DNA from: Carcharhinus amblyrhynchos
Lineage: Eukaryota
Direction: 5' to 3'
Assembly: GCA_965287045.1 (NCBI GenBank)
Contig: OZ336878.1
Location: forward strand, 34,906,001-34,970,000
DNA length: 64,000 nt
Within the stretch, counting starts at the first letter, position 1. Every line of letters begins with the position of its first letter. The notes under the pieces were generated by a model. The model had not been told where the DNA came from and ran no database searches. It worked only from the letters and a program-made list of their open reading frames with translations. Positions 13,365 through 64,000 of this stretch are shown here, piece after piece. A program made the position numbers and the translations under genes.

Positions 13365-14763
13365 AGGGGAACAGAGACTTTGCCGGGAATTATAGACCGG
13401 TGAGTCTTACTTCTGTTGTGGGCAAGGTTTTAGAAAAATTATTAGGGATAGGATTTATAGTTATTTGGAGTGTAATGAATTGATTAGAAATAGTCAGCAT
13501 GGTTTTGTAGCGGGTAGGTCGTGCCTTACTAACCTTATTGAGTTTTTTGAGAAGGTGACCAAAGAGGTGGATGGGGGCAAGGCAGTTGACGTGGTATATA
13601 TGGATTTTAGTAAGGCGTTTGATAAGGTTCACCATGGTAGGCTTCTGCAGAAAATGCAGATGTATGGGATTGTGGGTAATCTAAGAAGTTGGATCAGGAA
13701 TTGGCTATCAGATAGGAGACAGAGGGTGGTGGTTGATGGTAAATATTCATCATGGAGTTCGGTTACGAGTGGTGTGCCTCAGGGATCTGTTTTGGGGCCA
13801 CTGTTGTCTGTAATCTTTATTAATGATCTGGATGAGGGTATAGTTGGGTGGATTAGTAAATTTGCTGATGACACCAAAGTCGGAGGTGTGGTAGATTGTG
13901 AGGAAGGGTGTCATAGTCTGCAGGGAGACTTAGATAGGTTGCAGAGCTGGGCCGAGAGGTGGCGGATGGAATTTAATGTGGAGAAGTGTGAGGTAATTCA
14001 CTTTGGTAGGAGCAACAGATGTGTCGAGTATAGGGCTAACGGGAGGACTTTGAATAGTGTGGATGAACAGAGGGATCTAGGTGTATGTGTACATAGATCC
14101 CTGAAAGTTGGGAATCAAGTAGATAAGGTTGTTAAGAAGGCGTACGGTGTCTTGGCGTTTATTGGTAGGGGGATTGAATTTAGGAGTCGCAGCGTCATGT
14201 TGCAACTGTACACTACTCTGGTGCGGCCGCACTTGGAGTACTGTGTGCAGTTCTGGTCCCCACATTACAAGAAGGATGTGGAGGCTTTGGAGAGGGTGCA
14301 GAGGAGGTTTACTAGGATGTTGCCTGGTATGGTGGGGAGGTCCTATGAGGAGAGACTGAGGGATTTAGGGTTGTTTTCGTTGGAAAGAAGGCGGCTAAGA
14401 GGGGATCTTATTGAAACATATAAGATGATTAGAGGTTTAGATAGGGTGGATGGTGATAGCCTTTTTCCTCGGATGGAGAAAGCTAGCACGAGGGGGCATG
14501 GCTTTAAATTAAGGGGGGGTAGCTACAGGACGGATGTCAGGGGTAGGTTCTTTACCCAGCGGGTGGTGAGGGATTGGAATGCCCTGCCTGCTGCAGTTGT
14601 AAATGCGCCTAGTTTGGGGGCGTTTAAGAGATCTGTGGATAGGTTTATGGACGAAAAGGGATTGGTATAGGCTAGTGGGTCATTGTTTTTGTAACTGGTC
14701 GGCGCAACATCGTGGGCCGAAGGGCCTGTTCTGCGCTGTAATGTTCTATGTTCTATGTTCTAT
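13365..14763 (+). mobile_element. Young 5'-truncated CR1 LINE (subfamily A)
   Basis: NYRPVSLTS, QHGF, YMDFSKAFDKV, GVPQGSVLGP, KFADD; (TGTTCTA)n tail; TAAACAG direct repeats at 13358-13364 and 14764-14770. Confidence 0.97.
13465..14670 (+). CDS. CR1 ORF2 reverse transcriptase domain and C-terminus, uninterrupted 401 codons (truncated TE ORF, not a host gene)
   Basis: RT motifs intact; endonuclease missing; 1-nt frameshift just upstream in the A-run at ~13434-13438. Confidence 0.9.
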   Translation: MECNELIRNSQHGFVAGRSCLTNLIEFFEKVTKEVDGGKAVDVVYMDFSKAFDKVHHGRLLQKMQMYGIVGNLRSWIRNWLSDRRQRVVVDGKYSSWSSVTSGVPQGSVLGPLLSVIFINDLDEGIVGWISKFADDTKVGGVVDCEEGCHSLQGDLDRLQSWAERWRMEFNVEKCEVIHFGRSNRCVEYRANGRTLNSVDEQRDLGVCVHRSLKVGNQVDKVVKKAYGVLAFIGRGIEFRSRSVMLQLYTTLVRPHLEYCVQFWSPHYKKDVEALERVQRRFTRMLPGMVGRSYEERLRDLGLFSLERRRLRGDLIETYKMIRGLDRVDGDSLFPRMEKASTRGHGFKLRGGSYRTDVRGRFFTQRVVRDWNALPAAVVNAPSLGAFKRSVDRFMDEKGLV

Positions 14764-18879: not shown

Positions 18880-21400
18880 CCTGATTTGATTTATTATTGT
18901 CACATGTATTAGTATACATTGAAAGTATCGTTTCTTGCACAATATACAAAGCATACCAATCATAGAGAAGCAAAGGAGAGAGTGGAGAATGTAGCATTAT
19001 CATCATTCCTAGGATTAGAGAAAGATCAACTTAATGCGAGATAGGTCTCTGATGGCAGGGAAGAAGCTGTTCTTCTGTTGGTTTGTACGTATCCTCAGAC
19101 TTTTGTATCTTTTTCCCGATGGAAGGTGGTGGAAGAGAGTTTGTCCGGGTGTGTGGGGTCCTTAATTATGCTGTCTGCTTTTCTGAGGCAATGGGAAATG
19201 TAGACAGAGTCACTGTGTGGTAGGTTGGTTTGAGTGATGGCCTGGGTTTAAGAACATAAGAACATAAGAAATAGGAGCAGGAGTAGGCCATCTAGCCCTT
19301 CGAGCCTGCCCCGCCATTCAATAAGATCATGGCTGATCTGTCGTGGCTCAGTTCCACATTCCCGCCCTCTCCCCATAACCCTTAATCCCCTCGCTTATCA
19401 AAAACCCATCAACCCGCGTCTTAAAAATATTTAGCGAGGCAGCCTCCACCACTTCAACGGGCAGAGAATTCCAGAGATTCACCACCCTTTGAGTGAAGAA
19501 GTTCCTCCTCAACTCCGTTCTAAACTGCCCCCCCTTTATCTTGAGGCTGTGCCCCCTAGTCCTACTGTCCTTTCTGAGCGGGAAGAGTCTCTCCACCTCT
19601 ATCCTATCCATCCCATTCATTATCTTATATGTCTCAATGAGATCTCCTCTCATTCTTCTAAACTCTAACGAGTACAAGCCTAGTTTATTCAGCCTCTCCT
19701 CATAGCTCAACCCCCTCAACTCCGGTATCAGCTTAGTAAACCTCCTCTGCACTCCCTCCAAGGCCAAAATATCCTTGCGTAAGTGCGGCGCCCAAAACTG
19801 CACACAGTACTCCAGCTGCGGCCTCACCAATGCCCTATACAGCTGCAGCAATACCTCCCTACTTTTATATTCAATCCCCCTCGCTATGAAGGCCAGCATC
19901 CCATTCGCCTTCCTGACCACCTGCTGCAGGCTGGGTTTTTGCGACTCATGCACAAGGACCCCGAGGTCCCTCTGCACCGTCGCCTGCTGCAGTTTCATTC
20001 ATGACCCTTTGTAGTTTCTTCCAGTCTGGGACAGAGCAGGAGCCATACCAAGCTGTGATACAACCAGAAAGAATGCTTTCTTTGGTGCTTCTGTAAACAT
20101 TGGAAAGAGTAGTAGCTGACATGCCAAATTTCCTTAGTCTTCTGAGAAAGTAGGGGCATTGGTGCGCTTTCTTAACTATGGTGTCGGTATGGGAGGACCA
20201 GGGCAGATTTTTGGTGATCGGGACACCTAAAAGCTCGAAGTCTCAACCATTTTTACTTCAACCCCGTTGAGGTAGACAGGGGATGTCGTCTACTAAGTTT
20301 CCTGAAGTTGATGACTATCTCCTTCATTTTGTTTACATTGAGGGAGAGATTATTGTTGTCACACCAATTCACCAGATTCTCTACTGCTTTCCTCTAGTCC
20401 ATCTCATCATTATTTGAGATCTGACCCACTACGGTGACGTCATCAGCAAACTTGAAAATCGACTTGGAGGGGAATTTGACCACACAGTCAAAGGTATATA
20501 AGGAGTTCAGAAAGGGGCTGACGACACAGCCTTGTGGGGCACCGGTGTTGAGGATGATTGTGGAGGAGATGTTGTTGCCTATCCTTACTGATTGTGGTCT
20601 GTGGGTTAAGAAGTTCAGGCTCTAGTCGCAGAGAGAGGAGCCAAGCCCCAGGCCATGGAGTGTGGAGATGAGTTTCATAGTAATAATGATGTTGAAGGCT
20701 GAACTGTAGTTAATAAAAAGAAGTCTGACATAGGTGTCTTTGTTATCTAGGGTTGAGTGTAGAGCCATAGAATTGGCAATTGCTGAGGACCTGTTGTGGC
20801 AATATGTGAACTGTAATGGATCCAGGTAATACGGTTGGCCAGAATTGATTTGTGCCACGACTAACCTTTCAAAGCACTTCATAACGATGGATGTCAGAGC
20901 CACTGGACGATAGTCATTAAGGCACGCTGCTTAGTTTTTCTTTGGTACCGGGTCGTCTTCTTGAAGCAGATACGGACCTCAGATTGTTGTGAAGAGAAGG
21001 TGAAGATATCTCTGAATACCCTTGCCAGCTTGACCGTGCAGGATCTGAGTGCTTGGCAGAGCACCCATCCAGACCTGTCGCTTTCCGTGAATTGACCTCG
21101 GATACAGGTTCATCCGAGGTTTCTGGGGTGGAAGGTATGATCTCGCTGACCTCTTGCTCAAAATGGGCATAGAAAACATTGGGCTCAACAGGGAGGGGTG
21201 CGTTGTTGCCAGCAATTTTACCTGCCTTCATCTTCTGGCCTGTTATGTCTCACAGACCTTCCCAGTTGGCAGGGGGTCCGTGTGACTAGCCTGGGACTCT
21301 AGCTTGGTCCAGTGCTGTCTTTTGGCATCTTTGATGGATCTCCTTAGATCATGTCTGGCTTTTTTGTACAGGCCAGGGTCTGGTGACTTGAATGCCTCAA
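18880..21400 (-). mobile_element. Rex1/Babar LINE, long disabled copy with a nested CR1
   Basis: [14 protein letters not shown]...DPLQF...YVRLLF..YSSAFN RT motifs; (AAATC)n tail at ~18880. Confidence 0.92.
19250..19995 (-). mobile_element. Young 5'-truncated CR1 LINE (subfamily B) nested in Rex1
   Basis: Uninterrupted ORF2 C-terminus (RDLGV...LVRPQLEYCVQFWAP...FFTQRVVNLWN); (TTATGTTC)n tail; Rex1 sequence continuous across the insert. Confidence 0.95.
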
Positions 21401-23615: not shown

Positions 23616-23904
23616 AGGTTTTAACTGAAGTATAAGTGGTAGAGGCTGCAAGAGAACACAGCCACTATGGAATATAGCTTCAGTACATTTTGTATAACAG
23701 ATCACAGTGTTAGGTATTTTGTCCTGCAATCTGATCTTCAGAAGCTTTAGTTCCAGTGGCGGAATTCCCTGGGAGCCAGGGCAGGTGACCTCAAAACAAG
23801 TGTGGCTGAGGCTGAGTGTGGGGAGAGGCTGGGTGGAAGACCAACCCTGTGTCTAAGATTTAAAAATAAACAGAAATCCAGAAAACAGCCTTTCACAACC
23901 TCTA

Positions 23905-24452
23905 GTGCGGCCGCACTTGGAGTACTGTGTGCAGTTCTGGTCCCCGCATTACAAGAAGGATGTGGAGGCGTTGGAGAGGGTGCAGAGGAGGTTTACTAGG
24001 ATGTTGCCTGGTATGGTGGGGAGGTCCTGTGAGGAGAGACTGAGGGATTTAGGGTTGTTTTCGTTGGAAAGAAGGCGGCTAAGAGGGGATCTTATTGAAA
24101 CATATAAGATGATTAGAGGTTTAGATAGGGTGGATAGTGATAGCCTTTTTCCTCGGATGGAGAAAGCTAGCACGAGGGGGCATGGCTTTAAATTAAGGGG
24201 GGGTAGCTACAGGACGGATGTCAGGGGTAGGTTCTTTACCCAGCGGGTGGTGAGGGATTGGAATGCCCTGCCTGCTGAAGTTGTAAATGCGTCTAGTTTG
24301 GGGGCGTTTAAGAGATCTCTGGATAGGTTTATGGACGAAAAGGGATTGGTATAGGCTAGTGGGTCATAGTTTTTGTAACTGGTCGGCGCAACATCGTGGG
24401 CCGAAGGGCCTGTTCTGCGCTGTAATGTTCTATGTTCTATGTTCTATGTTCT
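23905..24452 (+). mobile_element. Young 5'-truncated CR1 LINE (subfamily A, second copy)
   Basis: About 8 substitutions (hand count) versus 14221-14762; open ORF2 C-terminus; (TGTTCTA)4 tail. Confidence 0.95.
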
Positions 24453-27974: not shown

Positions 27975-28565
27975 AAGAACAAAGAGAAGTACAGTACAGG
28001 AACAGGCCCTTCGACCCTCCGAGCCTGCGCTGATCATGATGCCCTAACTATAAAAAAAACTTCATGGAGTGGCAATCACTATCAGAAAAAATCTCCACCC
28101 TTACTTGGTCCGTATCCTTCTATTTCCTTCCTATTCATGTACCCATCCAGATGCCTCTTAAATGTTGCTAATGTGCCTGCTTCCACCATCTCCTCTGGCA
28201 GCGCATTCCAGGCACCCATCACTTCCTGCGGGAAAAACTTCCCCCGCACATCTTCCTTAAACTTTCTCCCTCTCCCTTGTGATAGACACTTCCACCTCAT
28301 GAAAAAGCCTCTGACGATCCACCTTGTCAATGCCTCTCATAATTTTGTAGACTTCTATCAGATCTCTCCTCAGCCTCCATCTTTCCAGTGAAAACAATCC
28401 TAGCTTATTCAACCTCTCCTCACAGCCAACACCCTCGAGACCAGGCAACATCCTGATGAACCTTCTTCACACTCTCTCCAAAGTTTCAACATCCTTCAGA
28501 TAATGTGTTGACCAGAACTGCATGCAATATTCGAAATGTGGCCCAACCAAGATTTCACGTAGCTA
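27975..28565 (-). mobile_element. CR1/HER1-like LINE 3' fragment
   Basis: MLPGLEG..EERLNKLGLFSLE..DLIEVYKIMRG and DVRGKFF..WNALP; frameshifted. Confidence 0.9.
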
Positions 28566-28659
28566 CAGGCATTATCTCTGGATTACATTTAAAATTTTCA
28601 TAACAGGCACATCACTTCAAAAGAGGATGACAGACTGTCAGGCCAGATAATTGCATAAT

Positions 28660-28938
28660 GTAGCACAGTGATTAGCACTGCTACCTCACAGTGCCACCTG
28701 GCTTGGGTCACTGTCTGTGTGGGGTTTGCACATTTTCCCTGTGTCTGCATGGGTTTCCTTCAGGTGCTCAGGTTTCCTACCACGGTCCAAAAATGTGCAA
28801 ATTAGGTGGATTGACTGTGCTAAATTCTCCCTCAGTGTATCTGAACAGGCGCTGGACTGTAGCCACTAGGGGATGTTCATTGTAATTTCATTATAGTGTG
28901 AATGTAAGCCTACTTGTGACTAATAAATAAATTTTAAA
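28660..28938 (+). mobile_element. HE1-like V-SINE, alternative-tail variant
   Basis: Head GCACAGTGATTAGCACTG; tail AAGCCTACTTGTGACTAATAAATAAA. Confidence 0.85.
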
Positions 28939-28974
28939 GCTGGCCCTTTTAAAGGGTGTACAGTCCTAAGATGT

Positions 28975-29112
28975 ACAAGCAGGTGAGTTGACTACGGGAA
29001 ATGTGTGAGGTTGCAGGGGAAGAGGGCCTGGGTAAGATACTCTGTCAGGAAGTCAGTGCAGACTCGATGGGCTGAATGGGCTCTTCTGCACTGTAGAGAT
29101 TCTATGATTCTA
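28975..29112 (+). mobile_element. HE1 SINE canonical 3' tail fragment
   Basis: GCAGACTCGATGGGCTGAATGG...CTGCACTGTAGAGATTCTATGATTCTA. Confidence 0.75.
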
Positions 29113-31324
29113 CAATGGGAGGGTCATGTGACCTGATTGCCTAATAGAGAATGAGGATTGGGGATCTTGGTGCCGAGTACAGGTTTTGCAGACTAGACCG
29201 CAGAGCTGGGACTGTTAACATTGTGAAAGTACTCTGTCTAGTTATCTACTTGTAAATAAACCATTGTAGTTCATTATACTAACTAGCGGTCCCCAGTCCT
29301 TCCAATTAATACAATCACTAAACATTGCAATTCACGGATTGAATTATTTACAACAGCAAGCAGAAACAGGAGTTATGGAAGGCGGTAATACAGCAGCTTT
29401 GAACCAACTGTGAAAGGGTTAATTATTCAGTCCCGCCAGCTCCACTCCCTTGAGTGGTTTTCTTTGCAGACATTTTCAATGAAAGATAAACAAAGGAAAA
29501 GCAGCACGATTCCGACTGGTAAAGCTTTCTTGAAATCATGTAAACTTTCTTGTGGAGTCACATTAAGTCCCTGTTTATTGCTGTCAATTCATTAAAGAGG
29601 TGGCCAATCCTTTCAACTGTGAAATCCGTTGAAATACTGTCTTACCTTGAGAAATCAATCTGAAGAACAGGGACTTAACTCGCACAATTAAGAGTAAACT
29701 CAATAATGCATACACAAGCTATGTAGGGATTCTATTTAGGTCAACGGTTTTGATGAGGCATTGCAATGTCCACTTGTGGTATCTAACAAGTACCTTCTAT
29801 GCTCAGGCTGTCTTGATTAGATTATGTTGTTGCTTACCAGACTGGTGCCTCATGTTAATTGTTTCTAGGACTTGGATGTACTCTGTGATGACTTTTCCAG
29901 ACATATAAATCCATTAGTAAACAGTACTGGCTTATCTAATTTCTTTCTGATATACTTAACAGAGTCAAAAGAACAGAAGCCTTGTCCCAACATATAGTGC
30001 ACGAAGCATGTTGAGGGCACTATCTGAAAATGCCCTTTAAGATAACAAATGCAGCAATTGGAAAAAATACATATGCTACCAGCAAACATAATACCTTATC
30101 ACAATCTAATGCTATTTCACGTTACTGTGAAATAGTGGATCCTGAATTTGTTATTTTGGGAGTGGTGGACACCTTTGGGGAGGTTACAGGTCAGACCTGG
30201 TATCATTGAATGGGGGAACAAACTTGATGGGCCGAATGACCTACTTCTGCTCCGATCTCTTATACTGTATTGGATTGGAGTCTTGTGTAGGGTTTCAAAA
30301 TGACTTACATATAGAATATTAATGACCCATGAGTCTTAACAATGCTCAGTCTCCCCTTGAGGAGTACAGATGGCATCATAAATCAGATCATAGAGGTTCC
30401 ATTGGTTTAGAATCCTGAACTAATTCTTTGAAGTATTTGTCTCATCTTTTAGTGGTTTCAATTAAATTATGCACTTATTGTTTTCTGCAGGACAGGACTG
30501 TCAGTGCAGCAATTAACAGAAAACATTTGAATTGAATAATTCATTAACTATTATTTCATCTCTACAAGGTTATTGCAAAATTATATCTGCAATTGATCAC
30601 TTGAAAATTCTGTAAGACTTTCTCTTCGACACCACCATGTCTATTGGACAACTGCATTAAGGTCTAGAGCTTTGTAGCCTATGTACACAGTTGACGGGCA
30701 GTGGGGATAAGTTAGATCCAAAGAAATATATTCATGAACATGGTGGTGTTTTAACCTGAATTGTGCACATTTAGCTTAACTCACACTGCTGAGTTTAAAA
30801 AGGCTCCAAGCCAATTTTGGCAACAATCTTCCACACTCATTCATTGTTGGGTTATTTATGCTTTACTGACTTAAACTTTCTTTTGGCCTATTCAGCTCCT
30901 TTATAGGGCAACCACAACTAAGATACACCTGGGAAAATTAAGGTGCAAAGCTGGTATTTTTCTTTAGAAAATAAAACTCTTAAGAAAGATGTTACGTTTC
31001 TTATGATCATTTCTTCTGATCTGGACATTCCATCGTGTTGACTTAACGCGGAATATATGGCAGTCAATATGGCAAGGTCCCACAAACAAAAATGAAATCA
31101 ATGACCAAATCATTTCTCTTAGATACATAAGTTAACAATTGGCCAGGGCATGCAGAGCTCTCCTGCTTTTCCAATAACGCATAACTACCAGAGAGAGGCT
31201 CAGTTTAACACTTCAGTTGGAATGTTCCCATCGTTCATGCCAGTGAGATTTCCCCATCCTGCTGCAGTGAACGGAGATTTGGCTGAGTGCTAAATTCTGC
31301 ATCTTTGCTGCAGTGGAAACATGA

Positions 31325-31540
31325 TTTTTTTTTAAACTTTATTCCAATCCAATCAAGTCAAATTAAACCCAATTCAGAGTCCCAACAAGTTGGGACATTC
31401 CCGATCCAAGCTGACAAGACAGGGCTCTCACCTCCTGTCTTGGGCTTGATCTACATGATCCAAGCTGACTGGAGTAGGTGTAGCTCCTCCTCCAGGGCTT
31501 GATCTTATTTGCATCTTAGCCAAATGGCCGAGATGCCGCT
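31325..31540 (-). ncRNA. U2 snRNA-headed structured element (putative SINEU-like retroposon or snRNA chimera)
   Basis: Minus strand GCATCTCGGCCATTTGGCTAAGAT is a 22/24 match to U2 nt 4-27, TAAGATCAAG repeats after it, then two ~48-nt hairpin units, a third hairpin, AATAAA and an A-run. Confidence 0.6.
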
Positions 31541-33444
31541 TTAAAAAATTGCTTCAAATGAAGCTGAAATGTAACCTAATGACTTCAACCAGATAGAGCA
31601 GGTCTCCATCAGCACTGCACTGCTGCATCATCCTAGGTTACTGGAATGAAGCCTAACTCTACGACCTACTACCTCAAATTTAAGAAGGCCAGCATTCAGC
31701 CAAGGCTTACATCCAGTTAGTATTGATGCTTACAAAATCTGTCTAGAATTGGTATCGCTTTTGTTTTGGCAGGTTATGCTAAATACCCATATCACTGGTC
31801 GACACCACTATTCTTAGTAGAATTAATTTAACACTGGAGCTGGACTATTGTCTCGATCAGATTCCTCAGATATGGTTGCAGAATTAAACTTTGACAAAGG
31901 TGTAACTGAGGCAGCATGAAAAGAACATCAAATCTGTATGATCGGAATCGACAGAATCAAGCGTACTCTATGTGAGTAACCACCGTGGTCGACATCATTC
32001 TGTTCAATCTGCCCCCAACACAGCTGAACGCTTGGAAATGGCATTATTCAAACAAATTGATTTTCTTAGAAAGGACTGATTAGTTGCGGCTTATCTAGGG
32101 ATAAATACTTACCCTGATACTAAAGCCTCCTTTTAACATTTAATCACATTCCCAAGTCACAGTAAACATGTTTATAATTTGCACATAATTAATCATGAGT
32201 ACCCTTTACAGTCCCCAGAATACACATTCATGAGGAGGCACCTAGTACTTGTGGCTCAGACAGATAATGTACCGTTCCCATGGTAGCTCTCCTTTGCGTT
32301 CTCTCCATTGATTTATCAACATGTTATAAGGTGCTCTGAAGAGTTTACCTTCTTCAGACTGCCTCCCATGTGTGAAAACTGCAAGGCTAATGCCTTGTCG
32401 TTACAGAGGGTGGGAGGGAGTCCACGGATGACACAATCACATGAAAGGTAAGTGCCGTTGAGTGCAATCATTAAACTATAACTGCACAATTTATTACCGC
32501 AGCCACTAAGATAATGGCGGAGACTGAAAGGTGAATTCTTAAATCATCCGAAACAGGGAACAAAGTAGTAAGCACATCAATTAGAGAAATATGACCTGGC
32601 TCAGCAGATTACTGATATGGAAGTTAGCAAGTTTTACTGCTCTTGTCTAAAGCAGTTAAGAATTTGTCTTGATGCTGATGAAACTCAGCGTGATTCAGCC
32701 ACAATTAACAAGAGCTTTCCTACAGCATCACTACATAGTGCATTTTAAACTGCTTCACAGGAAATAGCAACTCAAGAAATACTGATGACCTGCACATGTT
32801 TTCTGCTCCATTGCCTCTGATCCCAAATCTTGGCATCTTCAAACTGAGGAGTAATGAAGTACAACAGGGAGGCAGTTTATCACGGTAACAATCTGCATCT
32901 ACTTAATCCCCTTTAAAGATTATCCTTCAGAAGTATCTTGTGATGACATCATCACCCAGAGTTGGGTTTGGATAAATCTCTAGGTATTGTTCATTCCAGT
33001 TTTAGGCAGCTTCTGATTGGATTATTAGGTCTCTATTTATTTAACTTAATCCGAGCTTAATGAATCCCTGATATCTCTTAACACCTGGCAGTCTGCACAT
33101 TGCAGATGTTATGAACACAGTTTAGACAAACGAGGAGCTTTCTATACGAATACATTGTAAAAGATCAAATTGTTACCAATTAGTTGATAAAAGGCTTATA
33201 TTTTTAGCTGCTTGTGACTGTTTTCTCTCAATCTGGAATTAACTACTTCATTTCCTGCACACCACATCACGCGCCATTGACATTTTTCCTAACTCCACTC
33301 GGGCAGTGGAGTATAATAAATAATGAACATCCTGTCAAAACTGAAATGCTCATCAGTAAAATCAAATGAGAATTTTGAAATTCTGGCCTGCAGGTGTTCA
33401 ATATCTTACACTGTCCCTGTTTGCAGAAAGCCACCTTCTTAAAT

Positions 33445-34345
33445 CACTGGAGTCCATGTGGCATTGGTACACCCACATTGCTGTGAGGGGAACCTGTAGA
33501 TGCTGGTGTTCACAGAATCCCTACACTGCAGAAGAGGCCAACAAATCTGCATCAATTCTCTGACAGAGTGTCCTACCTAGGCCTTCTCCCCTGCCCTATC
33601 CGTGTAACCCCACACATTTACTATGACTAATCCCCTAACCTACATATATTTGGACAACTTTGCTTGTCCAATCCACCTAATCTGCACATCTTTGGACTGT
33701 GGGAGGAAAACAGAGCACCTGGAGGAAACCCATGCATTTGCTTCCCTTGCCCTTCTAGAGATTGAGGATTTGGAAGGTACTGTCAAAAAAGTCTTGGGGA
33801 GTTGCTTCTGTGTCTTGTAGATCATGCACACAGCTGCCATACTGTGTGCCCGTGGTAGAGGGATGAAATAGTTAAGGTAGTGGGTTGGATGCTGATCGTG
33901 GGCTACTTTGTCCTAGATGGTGTCAAGTTTCTTGATTGTTTCTGGATGTCACTAACCCAGACAAGCAGAAAGTATTGTATCACACTCCTAACTTGTGCCT
34001 TATAAGATGGTGGGCATGCTTTAGGAGTAAGGACACGAGTTACTTACTGCAGAATTCCCTGCCTCTGACCTGCTTTTGTAGCCACAGTATTTTTCCTGCT
34101 AGTCCAGTTAAGTTTCTGGTCAACAGAATATTGACAGGGGGAGATTCAGTGATATTAATGCTATTAAATATCATGGGAGATGGTTAGATTCTCTTTAATG
34201 GGAGCTGGTCATTGCCTGGCACGAGCACAATGCAAATATTATTTACTTCTTATTGGTCTAAGCCTGAATGCTATCCAGGTCTTGTTGCATGTGGGCACAG
34301 TCTACTTCAGTATTTTAGGAATTGCAAATGGCACTGAACACTGTG
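33445..34345 (-). mobile_element. Jockey/CR1-group LINE fragment (family of 16408-17175) with a nested HE1
   Basis: AAVCMIYK motif; similar to 16500-17170. Confidence 0.7.
33513..33734 (-). mobile_element. HE1 V-SINE 3' half
   Basis: AGAATCCCTACACTGCAGAAGAGGCCA...TTTGGACTGTGGGAGGAAA. Confidence 0.8.
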
Positions 34346-34851
34346 GAGTCATGCACAACATGGTGTCCGAGTTTCAGTGCTTATGTGATACCAAGTACTC
34401 ACTACATATGGCCCAGTGACTGGCAGAGCAAATCAAACAGCATCTTCTTTTGGTTGTTTGCAATAGGCAGATTATAGACTGTACTCAATCAGCCAGTATT
34501 TACAAAACCAAAATCTAAATGCCCACTGTTGAATGTGATTGGGCAGCACTTGCTGAACAATCCTGAATGTGTCAATAACTACACTATCAAACAATTTACG
34601 ATAATCAGGCAAGTGTATATTGTGGGTCATTTATGCTTGCTTGAAGTGATCCACAGTCATTCTCAGCTACTCATTCTCTGCAGAATATGTTCAAGCCTTG
34701 CACCTTTTTTGAATTACCCATGAGCCTGGGCAGTCCATAACCCTCTGCTGCTTTCTCCATGGTAACACCTGGGCCAATCAAAGTCAACTTACCAGCATTC
34801 TCTCCTTCCATAGCATAAATTGTGCTTTGTTTTGAAATTTAGCATTTTAGT

Positions 34852-34890
34852 GTTTGCCCTGATGAGTGCAAGACGAAAAGCTTCAGCAAC
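34852..34890 (+). ncRNA. Minimal type I hammerhead ribozyme motif in a short repeat
   Basis: TTGCC-CTGATGA-GT GCAAG AC-GAAA-AGCT-TC-AGCAA: complete core, short stem II, palindromic AAGCTT stem III. Confidence 0.6.
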
Positions 34891-35059
34891 ACATATCTTC
34901 TGAGCAACATAAAATAATTAATGATAAATATGTTTGCATCAACAACAGAAAATTATATATTGTTTCCATGCACCTTTGCCGCACCCCCACAATCCCCTCC
35001 CCTCACCCCAACGAACCTCCCTGTGGCCCAGCCCTCCTTTATCACTACCTGACATCATT

Positions 35060-35480
35060 AATCATCCAAGCTCAACAACATTTGGGATATAACAGACCGG
35101 GTGACCCACCAGCAGCGTACCATGTCTGCAGTGTGCACTACCAATAGGACGCATTCAAGCAACTCATCAAAGCTCCTTTAACAGCACCTCTCACACCCAG
35201 GACCTCAACCATTTAAAAGGACAAGGGTGGCTACTGCATAGAAGCACCATCACCTCTAGTTTTGGCTGCAATTCACCAATCATCTGAACCTAGACATATA
35301 TCTTTGATCCTTCATGTCGCTGGATCAACTTCCTGGACTCCCAATTTAACAACACTGCAGGAGCGAATCCACTACAAGAGCTCAAGACTGCAATTCACCT
35401 TCCCAATGGCAATTCGAGATAGGCAATATGATACTGTTTTTCCAGTGATACCTACATCTTTATAATGATTTTTTTAAAAT
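35060..35480 (+). mobile_element. Jockey/CR1-group LINE 3' end, old
   Basis: CTGCAGTGTGCACTA...GCAACTCATCAAAGCTCCTT...GGCAATTCGAGATAGGCAATA. Confidence 0.55.
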
Positions 35481-35683
35481 ATAAAGATACTTTCAAACAA
35501 AGCTTTCAAATGTGCTCCATCTGCATTCATTACAAAAGTGCAAGAAATACTGTGCAACCAACACGGTACAAATTCTAATGTATTTACTTCAGACATTTTT
35601 TATCTTGAAATGTACATCGTTCATCACTTTTGATTAGAAGGTTAACAACCAGTATACAGACTGGGATTTGCCCTTTTCTCTGC

Positions 35684-35985
35684 CATGGTTAGCACTGCAG
35701 CCTCACAGCGCCAGGGATCGGGGTTCGATTCCCGATTGGGTCGCTGTCTGTATGGAGTTTACACATTCTCTGTGTGTCTGCGTGGGCTTCCTCCAGATGC
35801 TCCGGTTTCCTCCCACAGTCCAAAGATGTGTGAGTTAGGTGGATTGGCCATGCTAAATTGCGCCTTAGTGTCGGGGGACTGGCTAGGGTCAATGCCTGAG
35901 GAATAGGGCCTGGGTGGGATTGTGGTTGGTGCAGGCTGATGGGCCGAATGGCCTCTTCTGCACTGTACGATTCAATGATTCCTAT
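35684..35985 (+). mobile_element. HE1 V-SINE
   Basis: Well-preserved B box GGTTCGATTCCC, V-domain and CR1-type tail. Confidence 0.9.
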
Positions 35986-53725: not shown

Positions 53726-53957
53726 GTACTGTGAAGAAAACTGATGAAGATGAAATCTCTCAGAAGAAAATATCCTACATGAGCAGAAATGTCATCAAGA
53801 AGCTTTAATGGCCTCCCACAACCATCTGTCCCAACTACATGCTGCCAGTTTTTCAGTGGTATATTGGAGAGCTTGGTGATGCTTAGCAAGGGCACCCTTG
53901 ATTAAATTAACTAAATGCTAGCTCTGGAAGGTCTTTCACTCTGGTTGATTTAATTAA

Positions 53958-54193
53958 AGTAAAAAGTCTGACAACACCAGGTTTTAGTCCAACCTATTTA
54001 TTTGATAATATACTCACTAGCTTTCGGGGTTACCCCCTTCGTCAGGTGAATGGAAACTTGCCATTCACCTGACGAAGGGGGTAACCCCGAAAGCTAGTGA
54101 GTATATTATCAAATAAATAGGTTGGACTAAAACCTGGTGTTGTCAGACTTTTTACTGTGTTTACGCCAGTCCAACGCCGGCATACCCACATCA
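53958..54193 (+). mobile_element. Young Penelope-like element terminus (inverted pLTR) with hammerhead ribozyme
   Basis: Perfect 96-bp inverted arms 53958-54053 / 54061-54156, 7-nt loop, 37-nt extra tail, 12-bp TSD TGATTTAATTAA (53946-53957, 54194-54205). Confidence 0.85.
54064..54101 (+). ncRNA. Minimal type I hammerhead ribozyme (mirror copy on minus strand at 54013-54050)
   Basis: TTCAC-CTGACGA-A-GGGG GTAA CCCC-GAAA-GC-TA/GTGAG; stems I and II pair; palindromic AGCT stem III. Confidence 0.75.
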
Positions 54194-61439: not shown

Positions 61440-64000
61440 CTGTAAACTGGATAAATCTACTAATGGGTGAAATTTCAGAAGATCAGTGGGAGGTGTTTAA
61501 GAAGAATCCAATATGACGCAGAACCAGTTTATATCCCGAAGGGACAGGAGCTCTACTTAATCACACACAATGAAAGGGAAATGACAACACAAAACTAAAA
61601 GGAAAATGCAAAAAAAGCACAAATTCTGGGAATGGGAGAGATACAAATGTTATCAAAGGATGACAAACAGATTCTAAGAGCTACAGAAAAGGGAGTATGA
61701 CAAAAGAATTTTAAGGAATATCAAATTCAACATAAAGAATTATAATTTACAATTACATTGGGAAAAAGTGAAGTGCAATGTGGGCCTCTTGAAAACTGCC
61801 AACACTGATATTGCCATAATGAAATGGTGGACATGGCAAATAATTACTTTGTATCAGTACTTACAGTGGTGAACAGCTTTCTAGACATCCCAATAATGAA
61901 CCAGTAATGTTTCATTAATGTTAAAATTAATGTAAGCAAACAGGAAAATAATGGGATTAAAGAGTGACAAATACCCAGAACCAGATGGTTTCCCTTCCAG
62001 GATTTTAGAGGAATTGGAATTGCCAATTCCATAACAATAAGCTTCAAATGTTTTTACAATTTGGGAACTGTTCCCGTAGATCGGAAAAATGCACACATCA
62101 CTTAGGCATTTGAAAAAGTTAACAGAGGAAAAAGAGAATTATACAGCAGTTAGCCTAACATCTTTTGTCAGGAAATTTCGGGTAGTGCCAGGGAACCAGA
62201 GAATGCATAGGATCCCTATAGTGCAGAAGGAGGCCATTTGGCCCATTGAGTCTATGCCGATTCTCTGAAAGAGCACCTTAGCCAGGCATAAAGCACACGG
62301 GATTGAGGGTAATGCACTGATATGGATAGAGAATTAATTAAAGGACGGAAAACAGAGAGTAGGAATAAAACGGGCATTTTCAGTTTGCAGGCTGTGACTA
62401 GAGGGGTACTGCAAGGATCAGTTATTCACCATCTATATCAGTGACTTGGATGTGGGGACCAAATGTAACATGTCCAAATTCGCGGATGATACAAAACTAG
62501 GTAGGAATGTGAGTTGTGATGAAGATGCAAAGAGGCGTTAGGGAATTTAGACAGGCTAAGTGAGAGGGCAAGAACATGGCTGATGGAATATAATATGGAA
62601 AATTGTGAAGTTATCCACTTTGATATGAGAAACAGAAATGCAGAATATGTCTTAAATGGTGAAAGATTGGGAAATGTTTATGTCCAAAGAGATTTGGGTG
62701 TTCTTGGTCATAAATCATTGAAAACTGGCATGCAGGTTCAGCAGGCAATTGGGAGGGCAACTGGTATGTTGGTTTTTATTGCAAGAGGATATATCCCAGG
62801 AGGAAAAAACTCTTGCTGCAATTCTACAGAGATTTGGTGAGATCACACCTGAGGCATTGCGTAAAGTTTTGGCCTCCTTATCTAAGGAAGGATATAAATG
62901 GCATAGACAGAATGCAGCAATGATTCACCAGACTGATCCCTGGGGTTGGGTGATTGTCATATAAGGAGAGATCAAAGTGATTGGGCCTACACTTTGGTAG
63001 GAAGAATGGTAGGAAGGACTATTACTTACGTGGCGAAAAACTGCAGCAGGCGACGGTGCAGAGGGAACTCGGGGTCCTTGTGCATGAGTCGCAAAAACCC
63101 AGCTTGCAGGTGCAGCAGGTGGTCAGGAAGGCGAATGGGATGCTGGCCTTCATAGCGAGGGGGATTGAATATAAAAGTAGGGAGGTCTTGCTGCAGCTGT
63201 ATAGGGCATTGGTGAGGCCGCAGCTGGAGTACTGTGTGCAGTTTTGGGCGCCGCACCTGCGCAAGGATATTTTAGCCCTGGAGGGAGTGCAGAGGAGGTT
63301 TACTAGGCTGATACCGGAGTTGAGGGGATTGAGCTATGAGGAGAGGCTGAATAAACTAGGCTTGTACTCGTTAGAGTTTAGAAGAATGAGGGGAGATCTC
63401 ATTGAGACGTATAAGATGATGAATGGGATGGATAGGATAGAGATGGAGAGACTCTTCCCGCTCAAAAAAGACAGTAGGACTAGGGGGCACAGCCTCAAGA
63501 TAAAGGGGAGGCGGTTTAGAACGGAGTTGAGGAGGAACTTCTTCACTCAAAGGGTGGTGAATCTCTGGAATTCTCTGCCCGTTGAAGTGGTGGAGGCTGC
63601 CTCGCTAAATATTTTTAAGAAGCGGGTTGATGGGTTCTTGATAAGAGAGGGGATTAAGGGTTATGGGGAGAGGGCGGGAAAGTGGAACTGAGCCACAACA
63701 GATCAGCCATGATCTTATTGAATGGCGGGGCAGGCTCGAAGGGCTAGATGGCCTACTCCTGCTCCTATTTCTTATGTTCTTACATGCTCTAGGGTTCAGA
63801 TGAATGAGAAGTGATCACATTGAAGCAAGGCTTGACAAGGTAGCTGCAGGAAGGATGATTCCCCTGGCTGCAGGGTCTGGAAACAGGGTCACAGTATCAG
63901 GATAAGGGGCAGGCCATTTAGGACTGAGACAAGGAGGAATCGCTTCATTCAGAAGGTGGTGAATCTTCGGAATTTTTGACCCCAAAGGACTGTTGAGGCT
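61440..64000 (+). mobile_element. Old CR1 LINE ORF2, decayed, with nested HE1 tail (62206-62285) and nested young CR1
   Basis: DKYPEPDG.P, NYTAVSLTS, GVLQGS, SKFADDTKLG, CEVIHF, RDLGV motifs with many stops. Confidence 0.85.
62992..63783 (+). mobile_element. Young 5'-truncated CR1 (subfamily B, second copy)
   Basis: Open ORF2 C-terminus ~230 aa, highly similar to 19250-19995; host CR1 LGLY..FR.MR resumes after the insert. Confidence 0.95.

Follow-up and report, generated by a model that had tools for sequence, protein, structure and literature searches.

A U2-headed element with duplicated hairpins in shark DNA: a possible SINEU-like retroposon beside a let-7-like sequence

Described snRNA-headed retroposons and the shark locus

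Crocodilians are the only animals from which SINEs headed by pieces of snRNA have been described (PMC4494074; the same is said in PMC5381603 and PMC5786205). The crocodilian precedent (Kojima 2015, PMC4494074) includes short U2 heads (SINEU-1J has one, and SINEU-3 starts with a 32-bp 5′ U2 piece), repeated 5′ additions of U1 or U2 by template switching, partial head duplications and tandem insertions. In the same account most SINEU families hold an internal oligo-T and none has a promoter for Pol I, II or III; the transcription of snRNA-headed SINEs is left open there, snRNA promoters being external. Among LINEs, U2 nt 38/39 is the insertion site of both Keno (Tx1 clade) and Utopia, relatives of Keno carry U2 heads (PMC4640811, PMC4494074) and some crocodilian Tx1 families carry U1 or U2 heads (PMC4494074).

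We analysed a stretch of 64,000 nt (the window), whose positions 31325..31540 hold, on the minus strand, an element of about 216 nt headed by a piece of U2. Like SINEU-1, -2 and -3 it is shorter than 500 bp and joins a U2-derived 5′ piece to a 3′ body unrelated to U2; further likenesses to the published families (PMC4494074) are a partial duplication inside the head, a tail of As (A9 at 31333-31325), target-site duplications that are variable or missing, and tandem insertion. The U2 piece is a 5′ head only if the sequence on its left is a separate insertion. Most SINEU families combine an internal oligo-T with the lack of a promoter, whereas the element has no T4 in 31540-31335 and holds one A-box and two B-box matches. 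The 83-bp middle U2 piece of SINEU-3 is absent, and no let-7-like neighbour such as the one reported below is described for SINEU in PMC4494074. Compared by description, rather than by consensus sequence, the element appears to work like a SINEU; we do not file it as a member because it departs in oligo-T and in its promoter-like boxes and because SINEU is reported only from crocodilians.

The U2 sequence of the element is confined to the part 5′ of nt 38/39, as in a truncated Keno or Utopia insertion transcribed from a U2 gene. An actual insertion of such a LINE, named for comparison in an earlier reading of the bare sequence (the sequence-only reading), did not hold up: no U2 from nt 39 on follows the A tail, the element has no ORF or RT, the locus is not a U2 gene, and Pfam found no RT or endonuclease family in the six read-through frames of 28500-35700. 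The 3′-truncated snRNA retropseudogenes and snRNA-L1 chimeras of PMC4476161 likewise start with a piece of the snRNA 5′ part, which stands at a T/A junction of L1 type and is fused to sequence of other kinds. They are described there as mostly flanked by target-site duplications and unselected, whereas the head and hairpin units of the element show structure-preserving change.

The U2-derived head and the hairpin units

The observation at 31325..31540 was confirmed as real; every motif named in the sequence-only reading lies where it had been placed, on the minus strand. The features of the element, all on that strand, are as follows.

31540..31548, minus: T6/A3 junction, fitting the L1-type endonuclease site 5′-TTTT/A (site consensus as given in PMC4476161)
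31511..31540, minus: U2-derived head, with nt 4-27 (stem-loop I) at 31536-31513 (Rfam match, by-eye comparison with U2, fold z −3.97)
31512..31522, minus: Pol III A-box-like 11-mer, its last G at the position of C28 in U2 (exact match to an A-box consensus)
31498..31507, minus: second U2 piece, nt 22-31, 10/10 (by-eye comparison with U2)
31457..31504, minus: hairpin unit 1, with a B-box-like 9-mer at 31504-31496 (unit match, fold)
31403..31451, minus: hairpin unit 2, with a B-box-like 9-mer at 31451-31443 (unit match, fold)
31379..31396, minus: third hairpin, a perfect inverted repeat of 8 bp, as had been noticed from the letters (z −3.8)
31325..31375, minus: G/T-rich tail with AATAAA at 31343-31338 and the A9 run at 31333-31325 (read from the sequence)

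The match of 22/24 to U2 nt 4-27 that had been claimed was reproduced by eye against the human U2 sequence printed in 10.1101/2021.08.01.454689; with equal base frequencies, the chance of such a match to one given 24-mer in the window is 1.2e-6. The Rfam U2 model (RF00004) aligned with 31533-31514 at 19/20 bases, although only over its positions 7-26 and at 14.2 bits, far under the gathering score of 46 (E 0.29; this value and the E of 0.11 given below for let-7 come from queries of 61-81 nt). With 30800-32200 (1401 bases) as the query the model gave no match at E up to 10, and at the gathering score it gave none in the window. A U2 origin of the head is supported at the level of sequence. The likeness to U2 lies in stem-loop I, and the absence of a branch-point sequence and of an Sm site, which had been remarked on before, was borne out: there is no branch-point motif, and no T4 that could make an Sm site. 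As no U2 follows beyond nt 31 either, the earlier idea of a neofunctionalised U2 variant is unlikely, and a U2 snRNA gene, for which a full-length model match is also absent, was rejected.

The 5′ end of the head may be 31540. The head departs from U2 at three places: stem-loop I gains 3 bp through a change at nt 6 together with the G at nt 28, a change at nt 15 removes the T4 loop of U2, and the same G (C28 in U2) completes an exact match to the A-box pattern at 31522. Each of these departures seems to serve either the stem or the A box, or else the removal of T4, and as a set the changes look adaptive rather than random. From the second U2 piece, at 31507-31498, unit 1 takes its 5′ arm; the piece looks like the head duplicated in part. 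The octamer noticed near the head is there, but it occurs six times in the window and is not special; being both common and internal, it was rejected as a promoter element.

The two units of ~48 nt gave two matches in the window, while any match was obtained in 0/100 shuffles. They align almost without gaps, and their differences fall entirely inside: the shared outer frame differs in 0/24 columns and the inner parts in 16/26, for which the chance is 1e-6, or 3e-5 if the placement of the block is allowed for. The earlier statement that the inner stems differ while staying complementary is upheld by 4 of 18 pairs changed on both sides and 34 of 36 pair cells paired. Slid controls of the alignment had no double changes, and a shuffle control reached the observed result in 31/500 cases, the floor for two sequences being ~1-in-16. 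With the frames fixed and the inner segments shuffled, an equal fold arose in 12 and 4 of 3000 trials. The comparison is one of two paralogous units within a single copy of the element. Given the distribution of differences, the four double changes and the folds of the shuffled inner segments, what is conserved in the inner stem is its structure, and in the frame its sequence. Selection on RNA structure, as had been proposed, is accordingly supported by the inner stems, but it is only part of the story since the frame is conserved in its sequence and not merely in its fold. Differences inside stems with the pairs kept are the mark of selection on a master sequence, and the perfect frames and stems suggest that this copy is young.

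As a whole, 31325-31545 folds into the head, unit 1, unit 2 and the third hairpin with a z of −4.15 (0/200 shuffles were as good), and, once GC is corrected for, the core of the element comes second among 770 tiles, each 166 nt long. For the units, the plus strand gives slightly better folds (−22.4 and −24.2) than the minus strand (−21.1 and −22.6). On the plus strand of a unit-2 arm, 12 of the 13 shown bases at 31440-31452 agree with the beginning of mature miR-218, the one mismatch falling in the seed (E 0.7-8.5); this match, which overlaps the U2-derived frame, is probably due to chance.

New in our analysis is that the departures of the head from U2 appear to complete a Pol III A box and that the shared frame reads as a B box, both judged by consensus patterns. 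The frame starts with U2 nt 25-31 and matches the B-box pattern exactly at 31504 and 31451. The B box of unit 2 starts 71 nt after the start of the A box, with a gap of 60 nt as against 30-40 nt in tRNA-type promoters (PMC7279448). The minus strand of the window holds 43 matches to the A-box pattern, and there are two A/B pairs outside the common SINE of the window (that of the element and one at 4070-4026) vs 0.75 expected from 20 simulations; the pair alone is not significant. A run of four or more Ts, the terminator signal of Pol III (PMC11240701), is absent from 31540 to the A tail (31540-31335), as it is from 416 of 1072 GC-matched tiles. That the U2-derived head may serve as an internal Pol III promoter is a reasoned hypothesis. 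A second, independent snRNA-headed SINE with A and B boxes and no T4 would make the transcription question directly testable, and if a family with such a Pol III promoter is real, it would supply, for its own case, the missing account of their transcription. The second pair lies in 4078-4008 (minus strand), together with a short U2-like motif and a repeated GATCAA; 4070-4026 was rejected as a relative of the element, its alignment score of 163 falling within the tile background (the best unrelated tile reached 177).

The 3′ end of the element runs AATAAA, GTTT, A9. The AATAAA pointed out earlier is present, but with 116 occurrences in the window it is not notable alone. TTTAAA, said to stand on both sides, does occur at both ends and is common in the window; its 3′ occurrence (31336-31331), however, overlaps the start of the A9 run, and we do not count it as a target-site duplication of the canonical kind. 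The sequences next to the two ends had no word of more than 6 letters in common, and any duplication would comprise at most three As, or 6 bp without a tail of its own if TTTAAA is counted. An unclear duplication does not exclude a retroposon, because SINEU-2 insertions are described with duplication, truncation or neither (PMC4494074). A DNA transposon was rejected for lack of terminal inverted repeats, and a tandem array because the element is not among the four tandem repeats found. Just before the T6, on the minus strand, 31551-31564 forms a perfect inverted repeat of 6 bp with a spacer of 2 nt, laid out like the third hairpin.

The let-7-like 22-mer and the left neighbour

The 5′ boundary was said in the sequence-only reading to lie perhaps at ~31590; the 5′ neighbourhood reaches well past that point, to about 31730. 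We found a match to let-7 about 120 nt upstream of the element, on the same strand and within a 200-nt segment, with the following features.

31541..31730, minus: left neighbour of the element (alignment, P 0.002-0.08 depending on scoring)
31655..31676, minus: mature let-7-like 22-mer, 20/22, without precursor flanks (Rfam let-7 match)
31623..31730, minus: long hairpin around the 22-mer, with stem 31717-31703 pairing with 31654-31640 (fold)

The let-7 consensus (RF00027) aligns with 31676-31655 as a truncated match of 17.6 bits (E 0.11), compared with a gathering score of 53.5, and the same stretch matches the let-7 printed for four vertebrates, including epaulette shark (PMC6048248); the plus strand at 31655-31676 is a near-complete let-7 complement. 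The likeness to the precursor coincides with the mature RNA, neither more nor less; the flanks depart from the precursor, whose 3′ arm is missing. As the full let-7 model did not match 31575-31690 and duplexes of the 22-mer with its downstream and upstream neighbours (−15.7 and −13.2) lie within the random range, we rejected a let-7 gene or precursor and any convincing let-7-producing hairpin. The chance of the match per query in the window is 1.6e-5; allowing for some hundreds of conserved microRNAs, we estimate about 0.01 for the whole window and far less so near to a U2 piece.

The hairpin around the 22-mer is better on the minus strand (z −2.96, vs −0.86 on the plus strand). When the plus strand is folded, the complement of let-7 lies in a stem-closed loop and is mostly unpaired (mean unpaired probability 0.79 vs 0.47 locally). 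Within this hairpin, 31645-31623 (minus strand) agrees with the 3′ arm of unit 1 at 18/23 positions and is the sole other site in the window within five mismatches. The 200 nt left of the head are colinear with the element, head to tail (~210 nt). Random tiles scored as well as this segment in 14/5932, 20/5939, 276/5938, 309/5937 and 462/5939 cases under five scoring schemes, so that P is 0.002-0.003 under only two of the five, and the covariance model of the two units did not detect it. On the alignment, homology with the element is likely but not secure; the left neighbour may be a tandem relative that is older and has diverged, or it may belong with the element to a single composite.

Adjoining the left neighbour on the plus strand, 31718-31783 matches the U7 snRNA model (12.3 bits, E 1.6), with a U7-type Sm-site-like motif followed by a hairpin; this is likely due to chance, a third small-RNA piece being possible. 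On the minus strand, 31788-31720 holds an exact A box at 31781 and, 53 nt away, a B box with one mismatch at 31728, with a T4 run between them; these boxes are possibly the degenerate promoter of the left neighbour.

Origin of the element and its setting

To the copy searches the window contributes the only informative result. BLAST found no second copy of the element within these 64 kb, and the two-unit covariance model, run over the window with filters off, scored well only at the units and on their opposite strand. Two exact-pattern scans of bacterial and archaeal genomes gave 0 and 0 matches, phages only one chance match of 28 nt (E 0.1) and plasmids none. Translated frames were used as a proxy for copies, each time without a positive control: two frames gave no candidates, an alignment of five unrelated frames gave 0/1185 candidates at E up to 1, and a representative library gave three low-scoring matches to repetitive, unrelated proteins, which we judged to be chance. 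The seven supplementary files of a small-RNA study that includes epaulette shark (PMC6048248) contain 0 matches to the element motif. Literature searches met one unrelated paper for motifs of the element, 0 for motifs of the let-7 variant and, by title or start of abstract, no SINEU-like element in sharks (Repbase entries would not show there). A family of the element, if there is one, is much rarer than the common SINE of the window.

In order, the element consists of the 5′ piece of U2, U2 22-31 once more, the hairpin unit in two copies, the third hairpin, AATAAA and the A tail, and it stands at a T6/A3 junction. We give a probability of about 0.5 to the reading of 31540-31325 (minus strand) as a young copy of a SINEU-like small non-autonomous retroposon, mobilised by L1/Tx1-type machinery and separate in origin from crocodilian SINEU. 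An RT of the L1/Tx1 clade (Keno-like) would have fused the 5′ piece of U2 with a structured tail, whether by a switch of template or by way of a truncated insertion in a U2 gene. The head may then have been tuned, within a master lineage, into an internal Pol III promoter, with T4 lost, the A box completed and a B box made of U2-derived GATCAA and GCC. The invariant frame would be read as sequence, by TFIIIC on the DNA and/or by a LINE protein on the RNA, while the inner stems would need only to pair. Target-primed reverse transcription would have placed the present copy at the A-rich end of a relative of greater age, and the body of that relative may have captured a mature let-7 RNA by the same template-jumping route; non-LTR RTs of the R2 type are described as copying whole small RNAs and microRNAs by template jumping in vitro (PMC8594491). 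Next to such an element, a genomic copy of a mature microRNA that lacks the precursor would document, within a genome, the capture of small RNAs by this route, and a captured let-7 could give a repeat family a regulatory role. The fuller version, a chondrichthyan SINE family with a U2 head turned internal Pol III promoter, in a lineage that also captured mature let-7 and whose dispersed copies spread near-perfect antisense let-7 sites or sense let-7 mimics, we consider unlikely.

The L1-type junction and the A tail count for the retroposon. Against it stand the lack of a second copy in 64 kb, as compared with ~17 copies of the common SINE, and of a clear target-site duplication, the weak A/B pair with its 60-nt gap, the commonness of T4 absence, the slightly better plus-strand folds of the units, the dependence of the tandem-relative P on scoring, and the lack of a partner LINE in the window frames scanned. 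Conserved hairpins are usual in LINE 3′ UTRs, and the single copy in the window would suit a one-off chimera or LINE end, in which the hairpins and tail are the 3′ UTR of a 5′-truncated Tx1/L1-clade LINE and U2 (and let-7) were added by template switching, with no separate SINE family. This is only somewhat unlikely, seeing that snRNA-LINE chimeras and 3′-truncated snRNA retrocopies are described as common products of L1-type machinery (PMC4476161) and that Tx1 families with U1 or U2 heads occur in crocodilians (PMC4494074), although the changes of the head from U2 look adaptive and not random and no RT or ORF2 remnant was found by Pfam in 28500-35700 (a short truncated copy would have none). 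If the element is a single chimera or a LINE end already in Repbase, its interest is modest.

It is distinctly unlikely that 31730-31325 forms a single composite, either dimeric or a 3′ UTR of greater length, with U2 internal rather than at the head and the let-7 module travelling along. The resemblance, in colinear order, between the left 200 nt and the right 210 nt, the third 3′ arm at 18/23 and the strand-specific left hairpin speak for such a unit, but the T6 between the halves would stop Pol III and matches an insertion site, the left half is far more degenerate and lacks AATAAA, and the unit model misses it. A single-copy host non-coding RNA under purifying selection, either a plus transcript that binds let-7 (as decoy or cleavage target) and U2 or a structured minus RNA, would explain the intact stems and frames, the single copy in the window and the mostly unpaired let-7 complement in its stem-closed loop. 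It is more doubtful still: the combination of A tail, AATAAA and L1-type junction is a mark of retrotransposition, a hairpin locks up the U2 complement whichever strand is read, and neither an Rfam family nor, in the supplementary files of PMC6048248, the element motif was found. Chance juxtaposition of unrelated short matches and hairpins might be argued from the weakness of both Rfam matches and from the commonness of the octamer, AATAAA and TTTAAA. The per-query odds for U2 and for let-7 in the whole window, the location of both within 120 nt on one strand, and the shuffle results for the duplicated frame and the fold make it extremely improbable, and for the U2 head and units it is largely refuted. 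The structure at this locus is real and looks selected, and it includes two pieces of host small RNA.

The window consists of animal DNA rich in repeats, among them CR1-type RT frames, and these repeats agree with a shark host. Its common SINE is ~300 nt long, has ~17 copies and starts its A and B boxes 45 nt apart; ARAGORN found 0 tRNA genes in the window, and no Rfam family reached its gathering score there, the element included. The segment 29100-33400, which contains the element, is almost without self-similarity to the remaining window. Among 150 of the 153 stop-free frames of at least 62 aa outside self-repeats, Pfam found only RT fragments at 20397-20930 and two weak matches (E 0.006-0.008). 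The 3′ flank of the element, 31200-31320, is loosely palindromic, shares a 13-mer with 31691-31703 (12/13, inverted) and has no further copies in the window; it resembles what we take to be a common shark non-autonomous repeat of DNA-transposon type, and as such would parallel the preference of SINEU for inserting into a Mariner derivative, Mariner-N4_AMi. Two pairs of CR1-type 3′ ends (19257-19995 with 63038-63782, and 14216-14763 with 23900-24447), at 96% and 98% identity, show recent LINE activity, and 13396-14670 is an open RT frame of 424 aa. The most stable fold in the window belongs to a long near-perfect inverted repeat at 53955-54155, where Rfam gave only generic hairpin matches below gathering scores, with no hammerhead among them; presumably its two arms are ends of a Penelope-like element of sharks, set tail to tail and with a core of hammerhead-like type.
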